From Gammaproteobacteria bacterium (GTDB taxonomy: Bacteria > Pseudomonadota > Gammaproteobacteria > SURF-13): a DNA stretch of 56,048 nucleotides. The stretch is from NCBI GenBank assembly GCA_030655395.1, contig JAURVQ010000039.1, positions 1 through 56,048 of the forward strand. The letters are read 5' to 3'. Shown one piece after another: positions 2,948 through 49,303 of this stretch; the first letter of the stretch is position 1, and each line of letters opens with the position of its first letter. The notes under the pieces are model-generated. The model did not search any database. It was given only the letters and a program-made list of their open reading frames with translations, and had not been told where the DNA came from. Position numbers and translations under genes: made by a program.

Positions 2948-3199
2948 AATCCGGACTCGACAACTCCGCACAATTCCGGATTCATGTTGCGCTTTACCGC
3001 CACTGGTCATTGCAGATCATTGCCGTTCAACCTATTACGCCACGCGTAACATATCAAGTGAAATAATCGAGCCCCAGCGCGTTGTCAGCAAATGCGCGGC
3101 AACGGGTCGTCTTCCAGTTCTTGCAGCACGCGGCTGCCGCCGAGCGGTGTCTCCAGTACGACGTGCGGTTTGGCGGCCGTCACCTGGCCGATGATGGCG
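2948..3199. repeat. Right copy of direct repeat (overlaps the 3' end of intact hypE)
   Basis: See the left copy at 418-743. Begins right after the higA stop. Confidence 0.85.
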
Positions 3200-4089
3200 G
3201 CTTCGTTGCCGGGCGGTAATGCGCGCCACGCGGCAAGTGCCGCGTCGGCCTGGTCGGGCGCCAGCACCGCGACCACGCGCCCTTCGCAGGCGAGATAGAG
3301 CGGGTCGTAGCCGAGGATGTCGCACACCGTGCGTACTGCGGCGCGCACCGGGATGGCGCTCTCCTTGAGGTGCAGGCCCAATCCCGTGGCGCGGCAGATG
3401 TCGTGCGCGACGGTGGCAAGCCCGCCGCGCGTCGGGTCGCGCATGAAGCGCAATCCCGGAAATGCATGCAGCGCGTGCGTGAGCGGCAGCACGCAGGCGA
3501 GGTCCGACTGGACGCTGCCGCTCAAGCCGAACTGCTCGCGCGCGAGCATCACGGCAACGGCGTGGTCGCCCACCGGGCCGCTCACCAGAATGACGTCGCC
3601 TTCCTGTATCCGGTTTATGCCCAAGCGCAATTGCGGATCGCGCACGCCGACGCCGCTGGTGGCGAGATACAATCCGCCGCCTTCGCCGCGCGGCACCACC
3701 TTGGTGTCGCCCGCCACTACACACACCCCTGTTTCCCGCGCCGCGCGCGCCAGGCTTTCGACAATGCGGGTGAGTCGCGCGATTTCGAATCCCTCCTCAA
3801 TGAAGGTGTTGAGGCTGAGATAGAGCGGTGTCGCGCCCGCGACGGCAAGATCGTTCACCGTGCCGTGCACCGCAAGCGCACCGATGTCGCCGCCGGGAAA
3901 TTCCAGCGGCTGCACGATGAAGCCATCGGTGGTCAGCATGATGTCTCCCGCAGGCAAGGTGAGCGGGACGGCATCGGCCTGGATATCGAGCGCCGGATTC
4001 GCGAGGTGGCGCGCGAACAGTTCCTCAACCAGTTCGCGCATGTAGCGTCCACCGTTGCCGTGGGCGAGGGTGATGTGGGTATCCTGCAT
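3085..4089 (-). CDS. hypE: Hydrogenase maturation protein HypE
   Basis: MQDTHITLAHGNGG... PurM-like fold sequence and the C-terminal PRIC motif. The ATGA overlaps the hypF stop. Confidence 0.95.
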   Translation of the reverse strand: MQDTHITLAHGNGGRYMRELVEELFARHLANPALDIQADAVPLTLPAGDIMLTTDGFIVQPLEFPGGDIGALAVHGTVNDLAVAGATPLYLSLNTFIEEGFEIARLTRIVESLARAARETGVCVVAGDTKVVPRGEGGGLYLATSGVGVRDPQLRLGINRIQEGDVILVSGPVGDHAVAVMLAREQFGLSGSVQSDLACVLPLTHALHAFPGLRFMRDPTRGGLATVAHDICRATGLGLHLKESAIPVRAAVRTVCDILGYDPLYLACEGRVVAVLAPDQADAALAAWRALPPGNEAAIIGQVTAAKPHVVLETPLGGSRVLQELEDDPLPRIC

Positions 4090-6383
4090 CAGCGCTGTGC
4101 CGCCTCGATGATCTGTCCGTAACTGAGCCCGCCGTCATTGCAGGGGACACGGCGCGGAAGATGGACGGCAAACCCGTCGTCCTGCAACAGCTGCAGCGCG
4201 TGTTCGGTGAGAATGCAGTTTTGAAATACGCCGCCGCTCAGGCCCACGTCGTTTACGCCGTGTTCATCGCGCAACACGCGCGCCTGTTGCAGCAGCGCGT
4301 GCGCGAGGCTCGCGTGAAAAATACTCGCGCGTTCCACGACGGGAATATGTTCATCAAGTAACAGCGGCACGAGCGGCGCCCAGTCGGTGTGCCAGAGGCC
4401 CTGCGCGTTGCGCTGCAACGGCAAGGCGACAGGTTGCGCGCCCGCACTGCTGATCGCCTCCAGAGTCATCGGCCCCTGCCCTTCAAAGCTGGCATTTTGT
4501 ACCAGGCCGAGCAGCGCGGCGGCGGCATCAAACAATCGGCCCACCGCGCTGGTTTGCGGCGCGTTGATGCGCCGTTGCCAAGCGTGCTGCAGCAGCGCGG
4601 TATCTTCCATCGGGCCGTTGAGCCATACCTGATTCGATTCCCAGCACAGGGCGAGCGCGCTGCGCCACGGTTCGCGCGCGGACTTTTCGCCGCCGGGGAG
4701 ATGAAACGGCCGTATGCTGGCCGCGCGCCGCCAGTGCCCGGCGCCGCCCAGCAAGGCCTCGCCGCCCCACAGGGTGCCGTCCTCACCCAGGCCCACACCG
4801 TCCCAGGTAAACACCAGCCAGTTTTTTATCGCGGGGAATTCGCCCGCGACGCCGGAGGCATGTGCGTGATGATGCCAGACCTGCGTCAGCGACAACCCGC
4901 TGCGCCTGTTCCAGCGCCGGGCCCAGCGTGTGCCGGCGTAATCGGGATGCGCATCACACAGGATTTTTTCGGCGCGTACGCCGTAGAGCGCTTGCATATC
5001 TTCGATCACCTGCTCGAATACTTCGAGACCGCGCGGCGTTCCGAGGTCGCCGATGTGCGGCGAGATCACCACGCGGTTGTGCCAGGCGAGCGCAACGGTA
5101 TTTTTGCTGTGACCGCCGGTCGCAAGCACGGGCCGGGACAACTCAAACGGCAGCTCCAGTTCCAGCGGCGCGCAGCCCCGACCGAGGCGCAACGGACGCG
5201 GCTGTCCGGCAATGACGCGAAACACGGCGTCGTCTGCCGGGCGCTGTATGGGGCGGTCGTGATGCAGGAAGGCATCGGCCACGTGCGCGAGGCGCGTTTG
5301 CGCATCACTGTTGTTGGTGAGCACCGGTTCGCCGCTGACATTGGCGGAGGTGGCGACGAGCGGTGCGCCAAAATCCTCGAGCAGCAGATGATGCAAGGGA
5401 CTGTAGGGCAGCAGGGTGCCGATTTCATCCAGGCCGGGCGCGATGTGTGTGGAGAGATTCGCTGCGCTGCGTTTGGTGACGAGCACAATCGGCCGCATGG
5501 GGTCGCGCAGTAGTTGCGCCGCAATCGCGTCGAGTTGTGCCGCCTCACGCACGGCATCAAGGCCGTCTGCCCCATGCATGGGAAACATCACGGCGAGCGG
5601 CTTGTGCGGACGCGGCTTGGTGGTGCGCAACCGCAGCACGGCGTCGTCGTTGCGTGCATCGCACATCAGGTGATAGCCGCCGACACCCTTCACGGCGACG
5701 ATTTTTCCCTCACGCAGTGCGGCCACGCACGCGGCAAGCGCGGCGGCACCGGTGACGGTTTCATCCGCTGCTGTTTTAAACGACAGTTGCGGGCCACACG
5801 CGGGACAGGCGAGCGGCTCGGCATGAAAGCGCCGGTTCAGTGGATTTTGATATTCTGCGCGGCACTGCGCGCACAACGCAAACCCCGCGAGCGTGGTGTT
5901 GCTGCGGTCATAGGGCAGGCGGCAGATGACGGTATAGCGCGGGCCGCATTGGGTACAGTTGATGAAGGGGTAACGGTAGCGGCGGTCGCCGGGATCATGC
6001 AGCTCGGCGAGACAGTCCGCGCAGGTGAAATAATCGGGCGCGAGGTGTATGTGTGCGGGCGCGCATTCCGCGCTCGGCAAAATGCTGAATTGCTCCAGCG
6101 GCTGCGCTGACGCGTATTCACACGACAGTACGCGCGGCTGTGCGAGTGGCGGCGCATCGCTCAACAGCCGATGGCCGAACTGTTCAAGTGATGCGCCGTC
6201 GCCCTGCGCGAATATCTCCACGTGGCCGGAACGGTTCCTCACCCAGCCGCAAAGACCGCAGTGATGTGCGAGACGGTACACGAAGGGACGGAAACCCACG
6301 CCCTGCACGCGCCCCGCCAGCACCCATCTGCGCGCGCAATGGGTAGCGACGGATGCGGGCAATGGCGCTGCGGTCATGGGCAT
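4089..6383 (-). CDS. hypF: Carbamoyltransferase HypF
   Basis: 764 aa with an acylphosphatase-like N-terminus (GRVQGVGFRPFV), two CxxC...CxxC zinc fingers, and YrdC and Kae1-like parts. Confidence 0.95.
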   Translation of the reverse strand: MPMTAAPLPASVATHCARRWVLAGRVQGVGFRPFVYRLAHHCGLCGWVRNRSGHVEIFAQGDGASLEQFGHRLLSDAPPLAQPRVLSCEYASAQPLEQFSILPSAECAPAHIHLAPDYFTCADCLAELHDPGDRRYRYPFINCTQCGPRYTVICRLPYDRSNTTLAGFALCAQCRAEYQNPLNRRFHAEPLACPACGPQLSFKTAADETVTGAAALAACVAALREGKIVAVKGVGGYHLMCDARNDDAVLRLRTTKPRPHKPLAVMFPMHGADGLDAVREAAQLDAIAAQLLRDPMRPIVLVTKRSAANLSTHIAPGLDEIGTLLPYSPLHHLLLEDFGAPLVATSANVSGEPVLTNNSDAQTRLAHVADAFLHHDRPIQRPADDAVFRVIAGQPRPLRLGRGCAPLELELPFELSRPVLATGGHSKNTVALAWHNRVVISPHIGDLGTPRGLEVFEQVIEDMQALYGVRAEKILCDAHPDYAGTRWARRWNRRSGLSLTQVWHHHAHASGVAGEFPAIKNWLVFTWDGVGLGEDGTLWGGEALLGGAGHWRRAASIRPFHLPGGEKSAREPWRSALALCWESNQVWLNGPMEDTALLQHAWQRRINAPQTSAVGRLFDAAAALLGLVQNASFEGQGPMTLEAISSAGAQPVALPLQRNAQGLWHTDWAPLVPLLLDEHIPVVERASIFHASLAHALLQQARVLRDEHGVNDVGLSGGVFQNCILTEHALQLLQDDGFAVHLPRRVPCNDGGLSYGQIIEAAQR

Positions 6384-13388: not shown

Positions 13389-14822
13389 ATGGACATGAGT
13401 CGTCTTGAGAGGCTGGATGAGTACCGCTGGAGCGTGCCGCTCGCTGCGAGCGAAACGCGCGCGCCGGTCTGTCTCTACGGCAGCGAACCGCTGCTTGCCA
13501 GCATGGATGACAAGGTGCTGGAACAGATTACCAATGTAGCGCGGCTCCCCGGCCTGGTCGGCGCCGCGATGACCATGCCCGACGCGCACTGGGGCTACGG
13601 CTTTCCCATCGGCGGTGTCGCCGCCTTCGATGCCGAGCAGGGCGGCATCATCTCCGCGGGCGGCGTGGGGTTCGACATCTCCTGCGGCATCCGCTGCCTG
13701 CGCACCAATCTTGTGATCACCGACATCCTGCCGCAGATGAAAATGCTGGCCGACATCCTGTTTCACACCATCCCCGCCGGCGTGGGCGAAGAAGGCGAGC
13801 TCAAGCTTGCGCCCGCGGAACTCGACCGGGTGCTGGCGGGCGGCGCGCAGTGGGCGGTGAAGCACGGTTACGGTGTGGCGGAAGACCTGGACTATATCGA
13901 GGAGCGCGGCCAGGTGGCGGGCGCGGTGCCGGAGAACGTCTCCGATCATGCCAAGAAACGCCAGCGCGGCGAAATGGGCACGCTGGGTTCCGGCAACCAT
14001 TATCTCGAAGTGCAGGTGGTGGATCGCATTTATGATACGGAGGCGGCGCAGGCCTTTGGCCTGTACGAGGGGCAGGTGGTCGTCTCCATCCACTGCGGCT
14101 CGCGCGGGCTCGGCCATCAGATCGGCACCGAATATCTCATCACGCTCGCCAAGGCCGCGAGCCGTCTGGGCGTCGCACTGCCCGACCGCGAGCTTGCCTG
14201 CGCGCCGATCAATTCACCCGAAGGTCAGCAGTATATCGGCGCGATGAACGCGGCGATCAACTGCGCGCTGGCCAATCGCCAGATACTCGCGCACCTCACG
14301 CGCGAGGCGTTCGCGCGCATCGTGCCCGACGCGCGGCTGGAAACGCTGTTCGATGTTTCGCACAACACCTGCAAGGTGGAGCAGCACAAGGTGGACGGCA
14401 GGCAACGCACGCTCCACGTGCACCGCAAGGGCGCGACGCGCGCCTTCGGCCCCGGTCACCCCGCGCTGCCGGAGCGTTACCGCGCGGTGGGCCAGCCGGT
14501 CATCATCGGCGGCAGCATGGGGACGGGTTCGTATGTGCTGGCCGGCACGCGCGAGAGCGAAACCCGCGCCTGGTCTTCGGCGAGCCACGGCGCGGGCCGC
14601 GCCATGAGCCGCCATCAGGCGCTGCGCCGCTGGAGCGGGCGGCAACTGGTGGATGAACTCGCGGAGCGCGGCATTCTCATCCGCACCCGCTCCATGCGCG
14701 GCGCAGCGGAAGAGGCGCCGGGCGCCTACAAGGATGTGGATCAGGTGGCAGAGGTAACGGAGCAGTCCGGGCTTGCACGCCGCGTGGCCTTTCTGCGCCC
14801 GAAGGCGTGCATCAAGGGTTAA
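13389..14822 (+). CDS. rtcB: RNA 3'-phosphate ligase RtcB
   Basis: GGVGFDISCG, GSGNHYLEVQ, HCGSRGLGHQ, SHGAGR. Confidence 0.95.
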   Translation: MDMSRLERLDEYRWSVPLAASETRAPVCLYGSEPLLASMDDKVLEQITNVARLPGLVGAAMTMPDAHWGYGFPIGGVAAFDAEQGGIISAGGVGFDISCGIRCLRTNLVITDILPQMKMLADILFHTIPAGVGEEGELKLAPAELDRVLAGGAQWAVKHGYGVAEDLDYIEERGQVAGAVPENVSDHAKKRQRGEMGTLGSGNHYLEVQVVDRIYDTEAAQAFGLYEGQVVVSIHCGSRGLGHQIGTEYLITLAKAASRLGVALPDRELACAPINSPEGQQYIGAMNAAINCALANRQILAHLTREAFARIVPDARLETLFDVSHNTCKVEQHKVDGRQRTLHVHRKGATRAFGPGHPALPERYRAVGQPVIIGGSMGTGSYVLAGTRESETRAWSSASHGAGRAMSRHQALRRWSGRQLVDELAERGILIRTRSMRGAAEEAPGAYKDVDQVAEVTEQSGLARRVAFLRPKACIKG

Positions 14823-14838
14823 CGTAGGAGGGAGAGCC

Positions 14839-15486
14839 ATGCTGTTTCAAAACCGCAAGGAAGCCGCACGGCTTCTGGCCGAAAAACTCAAACCGTATCG
14901 CAACAAGAATCCGCTGATACTGGCCATCCCGCGCGGCGCGGTGCCGATGGCGAAAGACATCGCCGCAGCATTACAGGGCGAGATGGACGTCGTGCTGGTG
15001 CGGAAGTTGCGCGCACCGGGCAATCCGGAATTCGCCGTCGGCTCGGTGGACGAGAGCGGCTGGACCTACGTGGCGGACCACGCCGCCGCCGCAGGCGCGA
15101 CGCCGGAGTATATCGAGCAGGAGAAACAGGAGCAGCTTGCGACCATGCGACGCCGCCGCGCGCAGTACACGCCGGTGCATCCGCCCAGTGAGGTGGAAGG
15201 CCGTATCGTCATCGTGGTGGACGATGGCCTGGCCACCGGCGCCACCATGATTTCGGCGCTGCATGCGCTGCGCGCCAAGCAGCCGCAAAAGCTGATTGCG
15301 GCCGTGCCGGTATCGCCGCCGGAAACGCTGCAGAAGGTGACGCAGTACGCCGATGAGGTAGTGTGCCTGCACGCGCCGGAGTATTTTCAGGCCGTGGGCC
15401 AGTTTTACGCCGACTTCCCCCAGGTGGACGATGAAGAAGTGATCGCCCTGCTGCGCGAGAGCAAAACAAGCGCACCGCATGGCTGA
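14839..15486 (+). CDS. Phosphoribosyltransferase-family protein
   Basis: RBS AGGAGGGAG precedes ATG 14839. PRPP-binding loop IVIVVDDGLATGATM. Confidence 0.8.
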   Translation: MLFQNRKEAARLLAEKLKPYRNKNPLILAIPRGAVPMAKDIAAALQGEMDVVLVRKLRAPGNPEFAVGSVDESGWTYVADHAAAAGATPEYIEQEKQEQLATMRRRRAQYTPVHPPSEVEGRIVIVVDDGLATGATMISALHALRAKQPQKLIAAVPVSPPETLQKVTQYADEVVCLHAPEYFQAVGQFYADFPQVDDEEVIALLRESKTSAPHG

Positions 15487-15534
15487 GAAGGAGCAACCGT
15501 CCGAAATCGGCCAATAGCGGACGTTCACATTCGC

Positions 15535-15801
15535 ATGTTGCTTCCGACCTTAGGCGAAGCCGAAGAGGACTGGAAAACTCAGATAACCGTGCGGATAACC
15601 TCTGGCGTCCGATTAAGCACGAGCAGAATTGCGGTATTGCTTTGGCATGAGCTCGAGGGTAGGCTATTTAAACTGGTATACGCCAATGGAAGTGAGTCGC
15701 GCCGAGCAGCCGCATCTCAAATCATCGCAATCTTCCATCCCGCACATTCCCGATCTCATGTATTGATGCCAGTGCACAAGAGCCAGCGGTTGAAATCCTA
15801 G
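15535..15801 (+). CDS. Hypothetical protein (weak call)
   Basis: 88-aa ORF in the island with no recognisable motif and no clear RBS. Confidence 0.2.
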   Translation: MLLPTLGEAEEDWKTQITVRITSGVRLSTSRIAVLLWHELEGRLFKLVYANGSESRRAAASQIIAIFHPAHSRSHVLMPVHKSQRLKS

Positions 15802-15814
15802 GGGAGCAAGAGTC

Positions 15815-16009
15815 ATGGCTAAAGCCCACGAGAACAAGGTACGAGAGCAGATCCGCGTCGAATTCGCTAAACATCGCCGTAAAGAGTGTTCAGTTGTGGA
15901 GTCCAGCAAACTCGCCGGGATTTCGCCTTCCACTTACTACGCTTGGAATAAAGGCGATGCGTGGTCGAAGGCGAGCGGCTGGTCAAAAGGGGACGGCTGG
16001 TCAAAATAG
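15815..16009 (+). CDS. Small HTH protein with repetitive C-terminal tail
   Basis: RBS GGGGAG 8 nt upstream. SSKLAGISPSTYYAWNKG resembles transposase-OrfA/Xis-type HTHs. The tail is DAWSK-ASGWSK-GDGWSK. Confidence 0.5.
   Translation: MAKAHENKVREQIRVEFAKHRRKECSVVESSKLAGISPSTYYAWNKGDAWSKASGWSKGDGWSK
15953..16006 (+). repeat. 3 x 18-bp imperfect tandem repeat
   Basis: ggcgatgcgtggtcgaag / gcgagcggctggtcaaaa / ggggacggctggtcaaaa, ending at the ORF stop, 48 nt upstream of the lipoprotein ATG. Confidence 0.8.
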
Positions 16010-16053
16010 TAACTCTTCGGTGCGGTTTCGCAGCGGAATATACGGGGGTACGT

Positions 16054-17373
16054 ATGCGCACATGGCTATGGGTTGGATTTGTCCTCTTGCTTCAGGGCTG
16101 CACAATTTCGCCAAGTACGACGCTACTAAAGGAAAGCTTACCCAATCACAACTTCATCGCCACAGATTCAAGATTGCGCGTCATTTCAACTTCGGAGCAG
16201 TCGATTTTCTCAACGACCGGATCGGTCGATCCGAAGAACATCATCTGCACGGAACCAAGCCCTGATGTAGCGACCACAATCGCCAATTCATTCGGGGTCG
16301 GCGCAAGCATATTGGGCCAAGGCGCGGCCTCGCTCTCCGCGCAGCAGGTTGAAGGGCTTGTCCAACTTGGCGAGCGCACGGCAGCGATTCAATTGCTCAG
16401 AGACAAGATGTATCAAACGTGCGTTGCCTACGCAAATGGGGCGATTTCAGGTACGACCTACAGTCTGCTCATGAGCCGGCTCGATGATTCCATCGTCACC
16501 CTATCCCTTGGTGACGGGGCAGCGGGCGCATTTGGGCGCAAGCTGGCCAGTATCGGAGGGGAGGCATCTGCTAATGCAGACGCCAGCCTAACTGGGTTGC
16601 CCAATGCCCTGTCGACAATCGACGATCAAGCCAAGAAGCTAGCTGCCGCCAACAAGAAAGTGGACGATGCGGCGAGCGATCTCCAATCCCATAATGCGTT
16701 GCAACCCAATGCAGGAAAGGAAAATGACTACAGGGCGGAGACAGCAAAGTTAGAGGCTGCCTTGGTGACAGCCAAGGCCGAACGAGACGCCCTGGTGCAG
16801 CTCATGCAAGGCACGGCAAAATCGGCGTCAGAGGCTTCAGGAAAAATTTCACAATTGCAGGCAGGGGGTGACCTTTCGCCTAAGCCCAATGCGGAAATCT
16901 TGCGCGACATGCAAGCAGATTTTCTCGTGGCCGATATCGGTCGCGAAGTCACGCACGTGTGCATGATCGAATTGGGCTTACGCGGCGATAGTGATACCAA
17001 GAAGGAGATGACGACGCTAACTAGCTTTTTCGAACGGCTCTTTACGGCAGACCCGAATGCAACGTCAGGCGCAAACTACGCGGGTGCAGTTCTCAGGGGC
17101 CGGGATACGGTTTTGACAGACTTTTGCAAGGAGAATTTGTCTTCTTTAGTTACCAAGACCGCAGAGCAATCGCATGAGTATCGTAAGCGCCGCGCACAAC
17201 TCAGTACCGAGGTAGCGACCGCTCGCTACAGTGCCGACACCGCGAAGGCTTCCGCGCAGGATAGAAAGCTTTTTATCGACTCCATCAATCTATGCAAGAG
17301 CGAATTCAAGAACGACGCAAATCGCCAAAATGCGTGTCTTGACCAAGTTATTCCAATTAAAGCTGGTGAATAG
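16054..17373 (+). CDS. Orphan lipoprotein with Ala-rich coiled-coil middle region
   Basis: MRTWLWVGFVLLLQGC is a signal peptide plus lipobox (L-Q-G-C, Cys16). I recognise no family for the mature part. Confidence 0.7.
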   Translation: MRTWLWVGFVLLLQGCTISPSTTLLKESLPNHNFIATDSRLRVISTSEQSIFSTTGSVDPKNIICTEPSPDVATTIANSFGVGASILGQGAASLSAQQVEGLVQLGERTAAIQLLRDKMYQTCVAYANGAISGTTYSLLMSRLDDSIVTLSLGDGAAGAFGRKLASIGGEASANADASLTGLPNALSTIDDQAKKLAAANKKVDDAASDLQSHNALQPNAGKENDYRAETAKLEAALVTAKAERDALVQLMQGTAKSASEASGKISQLQAGGDLSPKPNAEILRDMQADFLVADIGREVTHVCMIELGLRGDSDTKKEMTTLTSFFERLFTADPNATSGANYAGAVLRGRDTVLTDFCKENLSSLVTKTAEQSHEYRKRRAQLSTEVATARYSADTAKASAQDRKLFIDSINLCKSEFKNDANRQNACLDQVIPIKAGE

Positions 17374-17618
17374 GCTCAAGCGCTAGCTAAGCCACCGGCA
17401 AGGCAAAAATAGCGCGTCGCCACTTGAAGGCACGTCGCGACATGCGGCCAGATGAAGATGGTCGAGCATTTCCCCCATAGCAGTCAACCGACCCGTGTTA
17501 GCATTGCATATGCGGACAGATAATCTCAGAGCACTCACACAATGAATCAAGCAGTTATTGTGCATCGGCATGTTCTCAGAACTTCAATAGTCCTGACCGG
17601 CCGGTCTGGTGAATAACT

Positions 17619-17625
17619 GTTAGGC
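17619..17625 (+). repeat. Isolated integron core site GTTAGGC (cassette 5' boundary or degenerate attC end)
   Basis: Perfect GTTRRRY 20 nt upstream of ATG 17645. The upstream sequence does not fold into a symmetric attC. Confidence 0.35.
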
Positions 17626-17644
17626 GTCGCAAGGTTCTCTAACA

Positions 17645-18961
17645 ATGTCCCTTGATCTCCATCCGAACTGTCAAGCTCAGTTACGAACATCGCTTGGCGA
17701 CCAGTTGGCGCACGCCGGCGCTCGCCACGGGATGTTTCTGACGAAAGAGACGTTGCTGTACCTTTTCCTGGCTCAAGCCGCGCTGCCAACGACGGGAAAG
17801 ATTCGCGCCAAGATGTTGAAGCTGGTTGGTGAGGCACCTCTCGTCGACTTTGTCAGCGGAACTCTCGCTCGTGAACTATTCGAGACTCAGGAGTACCAAG
17901 CTGAGGAGGGTCCGGCACCGCTAACTTCCATCCCCGCGTATGTGAATCTTGCAGCGCTAGCTGACCGTCTCGTAGACGACTTCAACTCGCTGCCCTGGAA
18001 ATACACAGTTACAGCCCCTCTTCCAAGCGTCTTCAGTGACGTATTTTGTCCAAACATCGGCAGAGTCACACTCTCCGACACTGTCTCGATATGCCGTGGC
18101 GACGAAGCGTTCGCCAATGAATACCCATTGGCCTCAGGGATCGAGAAACGTGATCAAACAATTGCCGGTGGAGGACTGCTTTCTGGCCTGCTTATTGGAA
18201 ACAAACCCGCTTGGGCGGCCGATCGAGCGTACCTCCAGGTATCTGTCGAGGGCTTCATTGGCAAGTACACGAGCACAGAACCTCTGCTCGATGCAATCGG
18301 AGTTCTCCGAGCTTTCTTTGGCCTCGGTCTCGCTCTGCGCCTTTTCAAGCCTGGGTCTACATATCAGCCGTATCCACAGCGCGAGAAGCTATACATTCAC
18401 CGCAGAGTCAGTGACGCGTGGGTCATTGAGGAGGTGCATGAACTCGAATCGAGGCACTCCGAAACGATCCGTGACTTGAAGCTGCACGATCTCGACGGAG
18501 CGCTCGACACTGACGCCAAGCGCGTGGTATGGATGAACGAGAGACTGTCAGCCATCTCGGCTGTGTTTCGCGCTGGAGAACATGCCCGAAATATTGTACT
18601 AGGCGCCCAATGGCTTCTCGATAGCCATTGCGGAAGTGACGAGCTGCTGCAGTTCGTCCAGGCGGCGGTAGTTGTTGAGATTCTCCTTGGAGGCAAGGCC
18701 TCTTCCGACCTCACCGGGCTTGGTGAGCTCCTATCAAACCGCTGTGCGTACCTTATTGCGACCTCACATGCACAACGAAACGAACTCCTGCAGGACTTTA
18801 GGGATATCTATGAAGTACGATCCAAGATCGTTCACCGTGGGAAAAGTCGTTTGGATCTTGGTGAGCGCACTCTCTTTAACAAGCTACGCTGGATGTGCCG
18901 GCGCATCATTCAAGAAGAAGTCGAACTCCTGGGAAAGGATGGTGCTGGCAGCGATGCCTAA
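17645..18961 (+). CDS. Hypothetical protein with C-terminal HEPN-like domain (Rx4H)
   Basis: The C-terminal ~130 aa is predicted helical, with AVVVEILLG ... IYEVRSKIVHRGK (R392-x4-H397, nt 18818-18835). The N-terminal ~300 aa shows no motif I recognise. The stop codon lies inside the attC inverse core. Confidence 0.7.
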   Translation: MSLDLHPNCQAQLRTSLGDQLAHAGARHGMFLTKETLLYLFLAQAALPTTGKIRAKMLKLVGEAPLVDFVSGTLARELFETQEYQAEEGPAPLTSIPAYVNLAALADRLVDDFNSLPWKYTVTAPLPSVFSDVFCPNIGRVTLSDTVSICRGDEAFANEYPLASGIEKRDQTIAGGGLLSGLLIGNKPAWAADRAYLQVSVEGFIGKYTSTEPLLDAIGVLRAFFGLGLALRLFKPGSTYQPYPQREKLYIHRRVSDAWVIEEVHELESRHSETIRDLKLHDLDGALDTDAKRVVWMNERLSAISAVFRAGEHARNIVLGAQWLLDSHCGSDELLQFVQAAVVVEILLGGKASSDLTGLGELLSNRCAYLIATSHAQRNELLQDFRDIYEVRSKIVHRGKSRLDLGERTLFNKLRWMCRRIIQEEVELLGKDGAGSDA

Positions 18962-19033
18962 CCCTTCTATCGAGCGAACATCCAACAACGGGCTTCGCAC
19001 ACTGTTGGCTGCCGCTCATGTCAAACGTTAGGG
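18956..19033 (+). repeat. Integron attC site (78 nt)
   Basis: GCCTAAC (RYYYAAC) ... GTTAGGG. Inner imperfect pairing is CGAGCG/CGCTC and CCAACA/TGTTGG, with unpaired bases. Confidence 0.7.
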
Positions 19034-19057
19034 CACAAAAAATCAGAGATCAAGAAT

Positions 19058-19747
19058 ATGGAATGGATTTACGTAATATCAGCGATCGCTAGCTCTATCG
19101 CCGCAGTATTAGCTTGGGCTGCAAAGTTGTGGTGGAGCAAGGAGTATGGTGCAGCGAAAGATGAAATTATAAAGGCAAAAGAAGCACAAATAGAGGCGTT
19201 AAAGGGAGAGATTGAAAGCCTTAAAGAAATGACGCCGATGAAGATTCGAGAGTATTTCTTAAGTGTTAGACAGCAGCTTGAAGAGTATAACGATGCCTTG
19301 AATGGTGAGCTGGATGAAGCACGAAAAGAGATTGAAGGAAAAAACGCCGAAATTAAAAAACTTCAGTCGGAAGGGGCGCAAAAGAGCAATGAGGTAGCTA
19401 AATTAGTAAGCGAGAGAGATAAGATAGAGAGCGCTGCTAAAAATCTTGAAACCCAGTTATCTGGGCTTAAAGAAAAACATGAGAGAAAGGATGTGCTCGT
19501 TATGAAACTACAAAAATTTGACACTGAAGCACTAAACAACATGATAAGTAATTACCAGAATTTAAGAAATTCGTTAGCACATTCATCATTGGCCATAGAT
19601 ACAGAAAAATTCTCTAACTTTTACAAAGATTATTTTGAAGCAAGTGCAACTGCTTCCTCCGTGGCAAAAACTTGGTTAGCTATTGAAAAAGCTCACGAAA
19701 CGAAAAACAAAAAAAACAATGACCAAGAAGATGATGACAATAAATAG
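19058..19747 (+). CDS. Membrane-anchored coiled-coil protein (hypothetical)
   Basis: N-terminal TM helix WIYVISAIASSIAAVLAWAAKLWW, followed by heptad-rich Lys/Glu sequence and an acidic tail. Strongly AT-rich codon usage. Confidence 0.65.
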   Translation: MEWIYVISAIASSIAAVLAWAAKLWWSKEYGAAKDEIIKAKEAQIEALKGEIESLKEMTPMKIREYFLSVRQQLEEYNDALNGELDEARKEIEGKNAEIKKLQSEGAQKSNEVAKLVSERDKIESAAKNLETQLSGLKEKHERKDVLVMKLQKFDTEALNNMISNYQNLRNSLAHSSLAIDTEKFSNFYKDYFEASATASSVAKTWLAIEKAHETKNKKNNDQEDDDNK

Positions 19748-19805
19748 CCCTAACACGTCGCTCCACCCGACCTCCTTCGTCGGCGGGTGAGCTTAAACGT
19801 TGAAT
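19748..19805 (+). repeat. Integron attC site (58 nt, aadA-like short type)
   Basis: CCCTAAC acGTCGCTCCACCCGAC ctccttc GTCGGCGGGTGAGC ttaaac GTTGAAT. GTTGAAT fits GTTRRRY. Confidence 0.75.
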
Positions 19806-19944
19806 GTCTCCTTCGGGTCGAAACCGGCTATGCGCCCAAGGCCATTCGACTTGTTTCAATACCGATCAGCCAGCCATCGAGTAAGACTAGTGCACACGCT
19901 TCTCACACTAGATTCCGGATACCCTTTTTATTCGATGCCCGTCA

Positions 19945-20148
19945 CTAATCGAGCAGGAAGGTTATACTGGCGTTGATGCGGTACTTAGTGATCTTGTTGC
20001 CTTCTACCTTGGCCTCAAAATTCTTGATATAGATCGACTTGATACCATGCAGAGACTTGGAGGCGCGCGCGACGGCCTGTGCCGCTGCGTCTTCCCAGCT
20101 TTTTTCAGACTCTGCGAGCACCTCGATTACTTTCAGAACGTCCGGCAT
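19945..20148 (-). CDS. Dodecin-family flavin-binding protein
   Basis: MPDVLKVIEVLAESEKSWEDAAAQAVARASKSLHGIKSIYIKNFEAKVEGNKITKYRINASITF; start at ATG 20148. Confidence 0.8.
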   Translation of the reverse strand: MPDVLKVIEVLAESEKSWEDAAAQAVARASKSLHGIKSIYIKNFEAKVEGNKITKYRINASITFLLD

Positions 20149-20214
20149 GATGCGCTCCCGTGGCTGTGCTTCATACGTTAGTTGTAAACATAGCTGACGA
20201 AGGATGGAGGGAAA

Positions 20215-20292: not shown

Positions 20293-20688
20293 ATGTCCAC
20301 CCTGACCAATGCCCAATTAAAGCAACTCCGGCAACTGCTGAACAGCCGCCTCACCGAACTGCTCGAGGAGGTGCGCCAGGAGATGATCGCCTCGGGCGAT
20401 CAGCACTATATCGACCTCGCCGCGGGCGTGATGGACGTCGGCGATGAATCCGTGGCGGACATGCTGACCGACATGAATGCCGCCCTTTTCGACCGTCATA
20501 TTCAGGAGATACGCGATGTCGAAGCGGCACAACTGCGCATGGCCGGCCTGAGCTATGGTGCCTGCAGCGACTGCGGGGGCACGATTGAATACGACCGGCT
20601 CGCGGCGTATCCGACCGCGAAACGCTGCTACGAATGCCAGAGCCAGCACGAAAAGAGCTATGCCCACGAGGCGACGCCGCGCCTTTAG
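20293..20688 (+). CDS. DksA/TraR-family C4 zinc-finger protein
   Basis: CSDCGGTIEYDRLAAYPTAKRCYEC. RBS AAGGAG. Confidence 0.85.
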   Translation: MSTLTNAQLKQLRQLLNSRLTELLEEVRQEMIASGDQHYIDLAAGVMDVGDESVADMLTDMNAALFDRHIQEIRDVEAAQLRMAGLSYGACSDCGGTIEYDRLAAYPTAKRCYECQSQHEKSYAHEATPRL

Positions 20689-48979: not shown

Positions 48980-49157
48980 CTCTGTCCTGTGACCTGAGAG
49001 ATTGAACCCCTTCGGTGCCTGACCACGGATATCAGCGGTCAGAACTCTCCAGAATATAGTGCTGTCTACGCGGTCCTTTTGCCTGAGCGTTTCCGGGCGG
49101 TTTGCGCCGTCGGCGTCCGGCACCGGTGCGACGGTGTCAGATCTCTCCCGCGAAGAT
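48980..49157 (-). ncRNA. Tandem glycine riboswitch (two aptamers) leading gcvT
   Basis: The minus strand contains GGGAGAG...CTCAGGCAAAAGGAC (aptamer 1) and CTGGAGAG...CACCGAAGGGG...CTCTCAGG..ACAGGACAG (aptamer 2). These are hallmark conserved segments in the expected position. Confidence 0.85.
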
Positions 49158-49303
49158 CAAGCCTACTATACCGTGCGCGTGCGGTGAATCCAAGCCAAAT
49201 TGCTCAACCCGGTGCGACAAAAAATCCGCCGTAACTGCTATCCACAGTTGACAGATGTTGCGCCGCTGTTGAAGATGTAGGCAATCTGACCCCGGGAGGC
49301 CCC

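Follow-up and report, generated by a model that had tools for sequence, protein, structure and literature searches.

Setting of the low-GC island

The window (the whole stretch of DNA that was analyzed, 56 kb) carries a low-GC island between a PRTase gene and a dodecin gene. A two-gene module occupies the left part of this island, and a predicted attI site followed by two gene cassettes occupies the right part (Table 1). In the composition profile the GC content is 0.38–0.58 over positions 15400–19999 and 0.60–0.72 in the flanks; together with the Pfam assignments of the flanking genes, this agrees with an earlier note on this DNA, which had described an AT-rich insertion between the two genes with a GC content below that of its surroundings. 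The same note had proposed an alignment with related genomes to find the empty site, and such a site was indeed present in four relatives (L003, L005, L006 and L007), where the PRTase stop codon is about 30 nt away from the dodecin stop codon. The two closest relatives (L001 and L002) contain other DNA at this spot. The island was searched for terminal repeats and target duplications and showed neither, and no Rfam family matched in the region, including at either attC.

Table 1. Features assigned or predicted in the island and at its borders.
Feature	Position	Strand	Description	Basis
PRTase gene	14836-15486	+	left flank of island	Pfam assignment
Low-GC island	15487..19944	.	4.46 kb, between PRTase and dodecin genes	composition, Pfam flanks, empty site in relatives
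Two-gene module	15709..17383	+	not part of integron; occupies place expected for intI	
Small ORF of module	15815-16009	+	64 aa	
Lipoprotein-like ORF of module	16054-17373	+	439 aa	
Micro-ORF MGEMLDHLHLAAC...	17383-17478	-	31 codons, starts in conserved motif	
Conserved motif	17441..17490	.	about 50-60 nt; far side of intI deletion	
attI region	17489..17619 (about)	+	crossover between G17619 and T17620	homology
Cassette 1	17620..19027	+	ORF 17645-18961 (438 aa, HEPN-like) with its own attC	
attC1	18956..19033	+	78 nt; R'' GCCTAAC, R' GTTAGGG; TAA stop codon of cassette 1 ORF inside R''	
Cassette 2	19028..19799	+	ORF 19058-19747 (229 aa, N-terminal hydrophobic segment and coiled coil) with its own attC	
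attC2	19748..19805	+	58 nt; R'' CCCTAAC, R' GTTGAAT; R' is a hybrid with the downstream flank	
Stretch after last crossover	19800..19944	.	145 nt up to dodecin stop codon; no assignment	
Dodecin gene	19945-20151	-	right flank of island	Pfam assignment

The two-gene module shows 76–78% nucleotide identity to other loci (L129–L134). No attC lies beside the module copies there, so the module was rejected as a cassette. Searches for Pfam, NCBIfam or PADLOC families gave nothing above threshold for it. At the other end of the island, the stretch after the last crossover did not significantly match any of the loci that were retrieved. A motif after the last attC, GTCYSCTTNGGGTCG, was considered as a conserved array end since it is loosely common to two loci (L082 and L083), but its frequency in the window is at chance level; one further match falls in a ribosome-binding-site region, and the likeness is not distinguishable from chance.

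Two attC sites

The coordinates and sequences of the two attC-shaped elements are as the earlier note had given them, each directly 3' of one of two consecutive ORFs on the same strand, with the stop codons in or beside R''. Both elements have the attC layout of R'' and R' (57–141 nt apart), and in each of them only the outermost base is off the consensus. Because of these outermost bases, the strict pattern RYYYAAC/GTTRRRY gave no match, while a relaxed scan (YYYAAC...GTTRRR, spacing of 50–150 nt) returned 4 places in 56 kb, among which attC1 and attC2 have the best inner stems. This heuristic was too noisy in other loci, and covariance models were therefore used instead.

The first model (R1) was home-made and rests on 13 class 1 integron attCs. 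It scored attC1 at 48.3 bits (E 2e-10) and attC2 at 40.2 bits (E 3e-8), far above the noise, as the next best place in the window reached 12.2 bits; over 1.25 Mb of relatives' DNA from around the PRTase gene it found no match. A leave-out model (R2) was built without the two closest relatives and from trimmed attC ends; a full-length MAFFT alignment had misplaced the aadA group. With R2, attC2 was the sole match (36.6 bits, E 8e-7) and attC1, whose aacA4 counterpart and variable centre are lacking in this model, was missed.

Among the attCs compared, the nearest to attC1 is that of the aac(6')-Ib (aacA4) cassette, with matches at 78% identity in more than 3300 plasmids, and the nearest to attC2 is that of dfrB1. 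The likeness of attC1 extends over the full length of the aacA4 attC (about 78% identity along the whole 72 nt) and includes the stop codon in R'', whereas the central region is longer in attC1. The dfrB1 attC (57 nt) shares with attC2 the same layout and many identical bases. When the bottom strands were folded, attC2 showed bulges at T36 and G42, where the corresponding bases of the aadA1 reference are T38 and G45; in attC1, T56 is bulged and G63 is in register with the extrahelical G57 of aacA4 but is paired in the minimum-energy fold. Thus the extrahelical T and G of the R''/L'' arm are placed as in reference attCs, with G63 of attC1 in register only. The earlier note had likened the second element to the aadA-type attC. 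Its extrahelical-base geometry is indeed like that of aadA1, but the element is closest to dfrB1 and not specifically of aadA type.

Both elements are imperfect palindromes after ORFs, and their folding z-scores (-2.9 and -2.0) are modest; generic palindromic repeats of REP kind, or terminators that merely look like attCs, could share these properties. We regard this explanation as hardly credible, since the window holds only two copies and the 1.25 Mb from relatives hold none, neither element is listed by an intrinsic-terminator scan, attC1 matches a known attC over its full length, and the homology to two other loci (L082 and L181) breaks exactly at G/TT. The earlier note had named two outcomes that would speak against it. 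Neither occurred: the covariance scores are not below the noise, and over the window and the 1.25 Mb from relatives the elements are not REP repeats scattered without relation to ORF ends. Judged by their sequences, the two elements are attC sites.

The cargo genes of the class 1 aacA4 and dfrB1 cassettes differ from those in the window, whose context is environmental and chromosomal. An attC of aacA4 type on an environmental cassette would be one data point on the source pool of clinical resistance cassettes.

Cassette boundaries

Cassette 1 starts with TTAGGC, complementary to GCCTAA in its own R'', and cassette 2 starts with TTAGGG, complementary to CCCTAA in its own R''. A copy of cassette 1 in another locus (L082) has 89.6% identity and aligns exactly with 17619–19027. 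A copy of cassette 2 (in L181) has 82% identity over 19026–19801, with another attC upstream and other DNA downstream; there is also an identical contig (L081). Moreover, in 8 genome loci a homologue of cassette 1 is immediately adjoined by a same-strand attC. In the independent copies of L082 and L181 the homology begins and ends at the predicted G/TT crossovers, and each cassette is accordingly a predicted discrete mobile unit bounded at G/TT and found in other arrays.

A predicted attI site heading the array

The sequence GTTAGGC is present at 17619–17625, where the earlier note had seen a further perfect core. It is not merely a core and is better described as the attI crossover. About 130–180 nt to the left of this crossover recur in 32 distinct metagenome or genome loci, always at the head of cassette arrays, and the 21-mer at 17599–17619 is matched exactly 26 + 13 times in contigs from metagenomes and genomes. 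Among the 32 loci the sequence is conserved to the left of G, whereas the pairwise identity to the right of G/TT is 0.27, which is chance level. Most of the junctions at these heads read GTTRRRY, and the attCs lie downstream only and on the same strand. The earlier note had seen no attI in the window; this has to be corrected, because the region at about 17489–17619 is conserved in 32 loci, and in one of them (L167) it stands beside an integron integrase gene. By homology, this region is the attI at the array head.

An 8-bp inverted repeat, CAGTTATT/AATAACTG, upstream of 17619 was examined as a possible third attC. It had no covariance-model match and no consensus structure in 23 copies, its left arm being variable and its right arm not. 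The repeat was rejected as an attC in favour of the attI reading; the attI region as a whole has no consensus hairpin. A tblastx search for a shared gene upstream of the attI heads found nothing in common, and a literature search with the attI sequence string gave no relevant result. A simple and crude sigma-70 promoter scan of 17380–17650 detected no consensus promoter, including for Pc, which leaves cassette expression without support.

Probable loss of the integrase gene

We searched the window by tblastn with IntI1 (a sequence 100% identical to plasmid intI1) and with the IntI of L167, and found neither an integron integrase gene nor a recognizable fragment of one, in line with the earlier note, which had seen no intI. 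A point of comparison is L167 itself, a chromosomal integron in a Betaproteobacteria MAG (JBDTRK010000104.1). It has the same attI region, with the array downstream in the same orientation as in the window, and an intact divergent intI of 325 codons, which lies on the opposite strand and begins about 170–210 nt away from the crossover; five attCs follow the attI, and mutS lies on the far side. The encoded protein scores 354.6 bits with TIGR02249 (cut-off 265) and is 46% identical to IntI1. The attI region in the window is 73% identical over 135 nt to that beside the L167 IntI gene, and the crossover 21-mer is identical. The window differs from L167 in that intI is missing, an unrelated two-gene module is found in its place and no cassette is shared.

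Two other loci (L137 and L170) retain only 35–40 N-terminal codons of IntI, and these stubs point to nested deletions of intI. On the far side of the deletion, the conserved motif is found again in many loci, at distances of 66–371 nt to the attI crossover, and a genome scan added further copies. The micro-ORF that starts in this motif occurs once in the window and is conserved over 12–37 aa only. It was also considered as the end of IntI (MEEILDRLLLAG), and this was ruled out because L137 and L170 carry the true N-terminus of IntI in addition to the motif.

Classification as a CALIN and its probable origin

A CALIN is defined by two or more attC sites that share a strand and are spaced by less than 4 kb, in a neighbourhood that lacks an integron integrase (PMC4889954). 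The array in the window has two attCs 715 nt apart on one strand and no integron integrase in 56 kb, and so is a CALIN in the sense of Cury et al. (2016), as the earlier note had maintained when it spoke of an integrase-less cassette array. It is not a complete integron: an attI stands at the array head, as judged by homology, and the intI that should adjoin it is absent. Like the published CALINs (PMC4889954), it has same-strand attCs after same-strand ORFs and no integrase; its cassettes also resemble those of CALINs in having no antibiotic-resistance function and a GC content unlike that of the host.

As for its origin, the earlier note had left two possibilities side by side, namely cassettes inserted at a secondary site and the remnant of a chromosomal integron. 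Of these, the second is upheld. Most probably a degenerate integron makes up the right half of the island, with intI lost and attI and two cassettes retained (ΔintI-attI-cassette-cassette), and we chose this reading because the DNA to the left of G17619 is the conserved attI region of array heads, which stands beside intI in L167. Since no intI fragment is left in the window, the loss of intI is deduced from the homology of the attI region and not seen directly. The first possibility, that a trans-acting integrase put the cassettes into an ordinary secondary (attG-type) GTT site which never was an integron platform, would fit a window with neither intI nor an intI pseudogene, and CALINs are documented to arise by insertion of this kind (Cury 2016, PMC4889954), as described also in a preprint (bioRxiv 10.1101/2022.09.11.507474). 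As in attG insertions, the cassettes here are not part of a complete integron, and with no integrase at the locus they are fixed. However, attG insertions use arbitrary genomic GTT triplets, whereas the crossover in the window belongs to a conserved attI. Relatives of this kind would not be expected for a random secondary site, and the 130–180 nt to the left of the crossover are kept in 32 array-heading loci, beside intI in L167; we therefore consider a secondary site very improbable.

For a degenerate integron, the history may be pictured as follows. An integron integrase would have captured each cassette as a circle, by recombination of the folded bottom strand of attC with the double-stranded attI at G/TT. 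Cassette 1 adjoins attI and would thus be the more recent arrival. The intI gene would then have been deleted, and the unrelated two-gene module now stands in its place. The array should now be unable to rearrange alone, but attI and both attCs look intact, so that cassettes could still be excised or added by an IntI supplied in trans.

Integrons without an integrase are a well-known kind of element; here the lost intI can probably be read from the surviving attI. Cury et al. (2016, PMC4889954) report no recognizable intI pseudogene for 95% of CALINs, and for want of one the origin of a CALIN usually cannot be read. While a typical CALIN is thus of open origin, the one in the window has an attI homologous to that of L167, and this match to a complete integron reveals its probable descent from an integron platform that lost intI. 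The same search for attI homology is applicable to other CALINs.

Heads without intI in other loci

Among about 40 related attI heads, intI is found at 1 (L167). The head may consequently have spread after the deletion, in which case intI was not lost at the locus in the window. Going further, one could suppose that the intI-less head, i.e. motif plus attI, acts as a dispersed platform: having no integrase of its own, it would persist and perhaps move while being served in trans by an IntI encoded at another place in the genome. The head is kept in about 40 loci whose left flanks are unrelated, the far-side motif forms a recurring boundary, the attI and attCs look intact, and in a Sulfuriferula MAG (SMAG_U14120) the head (L171) and the PRTase locus (L065) are on different contigs, all of which would suit such a platform. 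On the other hand, the search was seeded with an intI-less copy, so that the sample is biased to its own descendants; L137 and L170 display plain nested deletions of intI; the conservation of the micro-ORF ends at 12–37 aa; and terminal repeats or target duplications were not found in our search. For the array in the window we judge this explanation quite improbable, and a degenerate integron remains the preferred reading.

As a statement about the heads themselves, that motif plus attI without intI makes a self-standing recruitment platform, used in trans in about 40 unrelated betaproteobacterial contexts as against one with intI, the proposal is tentative and rather unlikely. If it were true, many CALINs would form a large class of satellite arrays, each equipped with an attI of its own, instead of being dead remnants or secondary-site insertions. 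An environmental family of betaproteobacterial arrays, nearly all of them without intI, in any case raises the question of service in trans.

Products of the cassette genes

The protein of cassette 1 contains the sequence R392-S-K-I-V-H397 (Rx4H), which is invariant in 29 homologues, and some of the homologues are named HEPN or Apea-like HEPN by their sources. Its AF2 model (pLDDT 89) gave a weak match to the HEPN entry 4nqf (probability 0.54, E 2.8), and the Pfam, NCBIfam and PADLOC profiles gave no match. On the basis of the Rx4H motif, the homologue names and one weak fold match, we refer to the protein as HEPN-like; with such a C-terminal domain it is a candidate RNase of toxin or defence type. 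The product of cassette 2 is a predicted membrane-anchored coiled-coil protein. For genome annotation, the outcome is a pair of cassette genes gained by horizontal transfer, of which one is HEPN-like, at a hotspot that conserved genes flank.

Insertion downstream of the PRTase gene

The DNA between the PRTase and dodecin genes reads as an integron remnant of the structure ΔintI-attI-cassette 1-cassette 2, which places it among the CALINs (integrase-less cassette arrays) as defined by Cury et al. 2016 (PMC4889954) and bears out the name given to it in the earlier note. Its GC content is indeed lower than that of its surroundings (0.38–0.58 from about 15400 to 20000 vs 0.60–0.72 in the flanks in a composition profile).

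For comparison we fetched 80 loci, each encoding a relative of the PRTase. The empty site that had been proposed for a search in relatives was present in L003, L005, L006 and L007 (70–78% nucleotide identity), where the PRTase and dodecin stop codons lie about 30 nt apart, and the intervening DNA is therefore a 4.46-kb insertion relative to them. Synteny continues on either side of it, an argument against an assembly chimera. In L001 and L002, the two closest relatives (about 94% identity), the match to the window ends near the end of the PRTase gene (at the stop codon in L002 and about 50 nt before it in L001), and different DNA follows. The spot is an insertion hotspot. The DNA of L001 includes a small inverted-repeat element (AAACCTATAG.../...GGGTAGCGTCCCC; 3389–4492) that truncates the PRTase C-terminus; in L002 (5969–9433) an 803-aa GspE-like ATPase replaces dodecin, DksA and methyltransferases.

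Features of the insertion and its neighbourhood
Feature	Coordinates	Strand	Basis or remark
RtcB	13389–14822		Pfam
PRTase (phosphoribosyltransferase)	ends 15486		Pfam
Insertion	15487–19944		empty site in relatives
Two-gene module	15709–17383		64-aa ORF and 439-aa lipoprotein-like ORF; identity to L129–L134
Conserved motif, about 50–60 nt	17441–17490		between two-gene module and attI
attI region	17489–17619	+	putative crossover at G17619
Cassette 1	17620–19027	+
attC1	18956–19033	+	R1, 48.3 bits, E 2e-10
Cassette 2	19028–19799	+
attC2	19748–19805	+	R1, 40.2 bits, E 3e-8
Dodecin	19945–20151	-	Pfam
DksA/TraR protein	20293–20688		Pfam
Glycine riboswitch aptamer	49061–49160	-	RF00504, 64 bits
Palindrome, 73 nt	49202–49274		heuristic scan

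Two attC sites

On re-reading, the sequences of both attC elements agree with their earlier description. A relaxed core/inverse-core scan of the window gave four candidate places, among which attC1 and attC2 own the best inner stems. Since Rfam gave no match at either attC, we built an attC model from eleven class 1 integron arrays. The IntI1 query protein proved on checking 100% identical to plasmid intI1 genes. From the DNA following annotated cassette genes 14 attCs were curated by eye, and 13 were aligned (A4), with the arr-3 attC (113 nt) excluded. In this alignment 82% of the cells in the R and L helices are paired and 25 double-sided changes occur; shuffled alignments did not attain these values. 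The resulting covariance model, R1, run on the window with filters off, upheld both elements, the next best match scoring only 12.2 bits; over 1.25 Mb of PRTase-neighbourhood loci it found nothing. A control model, R2, made from the ends of eleven attCs with the two most similar ones omitted, had attC2 as its sole significant match (36.6 bits) and does not detect attC1. Moreover, folding the bottom strand as DNA revealed the extrahelical bases that had been suggested as a check: single-base bulges T36 and G42 in attC2, matched by T38 and G45 in the aadA1 reference, and T56 in attC1, whose G63 is in register with the extrahelical G57 of aacA4.

attC1 resembles the aac(6')-Ib cassette attC, which is carried by over 3300 plasmids, with about 78% identity along its full length (E 2e-8). 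Here an attC so close to that of clinical aacA4 sits on an environmental, non-resistance cassette, a likeness that may say something about the pool from which aacA4 came. A further relative of attC1 lies in L139 (1266–1335). The attC-shaped palindrome GCTCAAC...GTTGAAG, which adjoins the glycine riboswitch (the sole Rfam family in the window), is supported by neither R1 nor R2 and is probably unrelated.

Cassettes and their cargo

The first six bases of each cassette are complementary to its own R'' (TTAGGC at 17620 to GCCTAA at 18956; TTAGGG at 19028 to CCCTAA at 19748), the expected look of a circular cassette opened at G|TT. Independent copies confirm the boundaries. In L082 a copy of cassette 1 (89.6% identity) aligns over exactly 17619–19027 and is preceded by another cassette's attC; in L181 a copy of cassette 2 (82% identity over 19026–19801) is preceded by an attC (35.9 bits) and followed by DNA that both differ from those in the window. 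In eight genome loci of diverse phyla (nine attC matches), the gene for a cassette 1 protein homologue has an R1-detected attC beside it, within about 700 nt and always on the same strand. Both cassettes are discrete, mobile units. In L082 the attC of the cassette 1 copy itself (3051–3120) is degraded (R'' GCATAAT, R' GATGAAC) and missed by R1; it looks like the decaying last attC of another integrase-less array, beside a yjdM gene.

Homologues of the cassette 1 protein number in the hundreds, some of them named HEPN or Apea-like HEPN by their sources, and R-S-K-I-V-H (residues 392–397) is invariant across all 29 aligned ones. The protein had no match among Pfam, NCBIfam and PADLOC profiles; its AlphaFold model is confident (pLDDT 89) and matched the HEPN structure 4nqf weakly (probability 0.54). 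The cassette 2 protein has a hydrophobic N-terminal segment and a coiled coil, and matches generic coiled coils only.

The attI region

The earlier note had recorded GTTAGGC at 17619 as a further core and had seen no attI. The heptamer is present, and the comparisons point to its being an attI crossover. The 21-mer that ends at the crossover G (17599–17619) occurs unchanged 26 times in JGI metagenome contigs and 13 times in GTDB genomes; the copies in L157 (353–373) and L164 (7161–7181) were rejected as attI sites, being chance matches inside a coding region that, in our reading, suggests a helicase-like gene. In 32 distinct loci about 130–180 nt are conserved left of the crossover G; right of it the sequences are unrelated, with a pairwise identity of 0.27, and most start TTRRRY. 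R1 attCs occur only downstream of this element, even where 8–9 kb of upstream DNA was available, and almost all on the same strand, with one marginal opposite-strand match (L149, E 0.036). No consensus secondary structure was found for the element, as fits a double-stranded attI and not an attC. A consensus promoter sought in the attI region was not found.

An integron captures a cassette when the folded bottom strand of the cassette's attC recombines with attI at G|TT, and the cassettes of the window would have been captured likewise.

Six heads (L146, L161, L163, L174, L178 and L180) share the same first cassette start right of the crossover (GTCAAGAAGGAGGCGGACGTGAAGCTG...TCATCTG..GCGTACTGCGC), which encodes a tiny ORF only and could represent a conserved first cassette of an ORF-less or leader-like kind.

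Probable loss of the integrase gene

Among the loci only L167 holds a complete integron. Its divergent 325-codon ORF shares 46% identity with IntI1, exceeds the cut-off of TIGR02249 "integron integrase" (354.6 vs 265 bits) and starts about 170–210 nt from the shared crossover, which five attCs follow; its attI region is 73% identical to 17489–17623 of the window. L137 and L170 retain just 35–40 N-terminal IntI codons, and the window and most other loci none. According to Cury et al. 2016 (PMC4889954), 95% of CALINs are without recognisable intI pseudogenes, and both insertion at a secondary site and intI loss are possible origins. The earlier note had left the choice between secondary-site cassettes and a remnant; the surviving attI decides for intI loss, hence a remnant, over secondary-site insertion. 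intI may have been lost at this locus, or the head may have reached it already without intI. About 40 related heads include one with intI (L167), a count biased by a seed sequence from an intI-less copy.

The motif next to attI recurs in many loci, 66–371 nt from the crossover, where it marks the distal edge of the intI deletion (copies are in L137, L160, L163, L170, L172 and L174–L180). It is present in five further intI-less heads, and also in two Gallionella loci (L175, L179) that lack attI. Flanks to its left are unrelated between loci. A minus-strand micro-ORF (MEEILDRLLLAG...) starts in it, with conservation limited to 12–37 residues.

Left of the motif, in the place expected for intI, stands the two-gene module, to which no family could be assigned. 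It is 76–78% identical to metagenome copies (L129–L134) that lie without flanking attCs among unrelated genes, with phage lysozyme, rve transposase and gasdermin-protease genes as neighbours. Its small ORF has a weak helix-turn-helix-like match; the lipoprotein-like partner is 440–500 aa across copies, and the window copy stops about 50 codons before its homologues.
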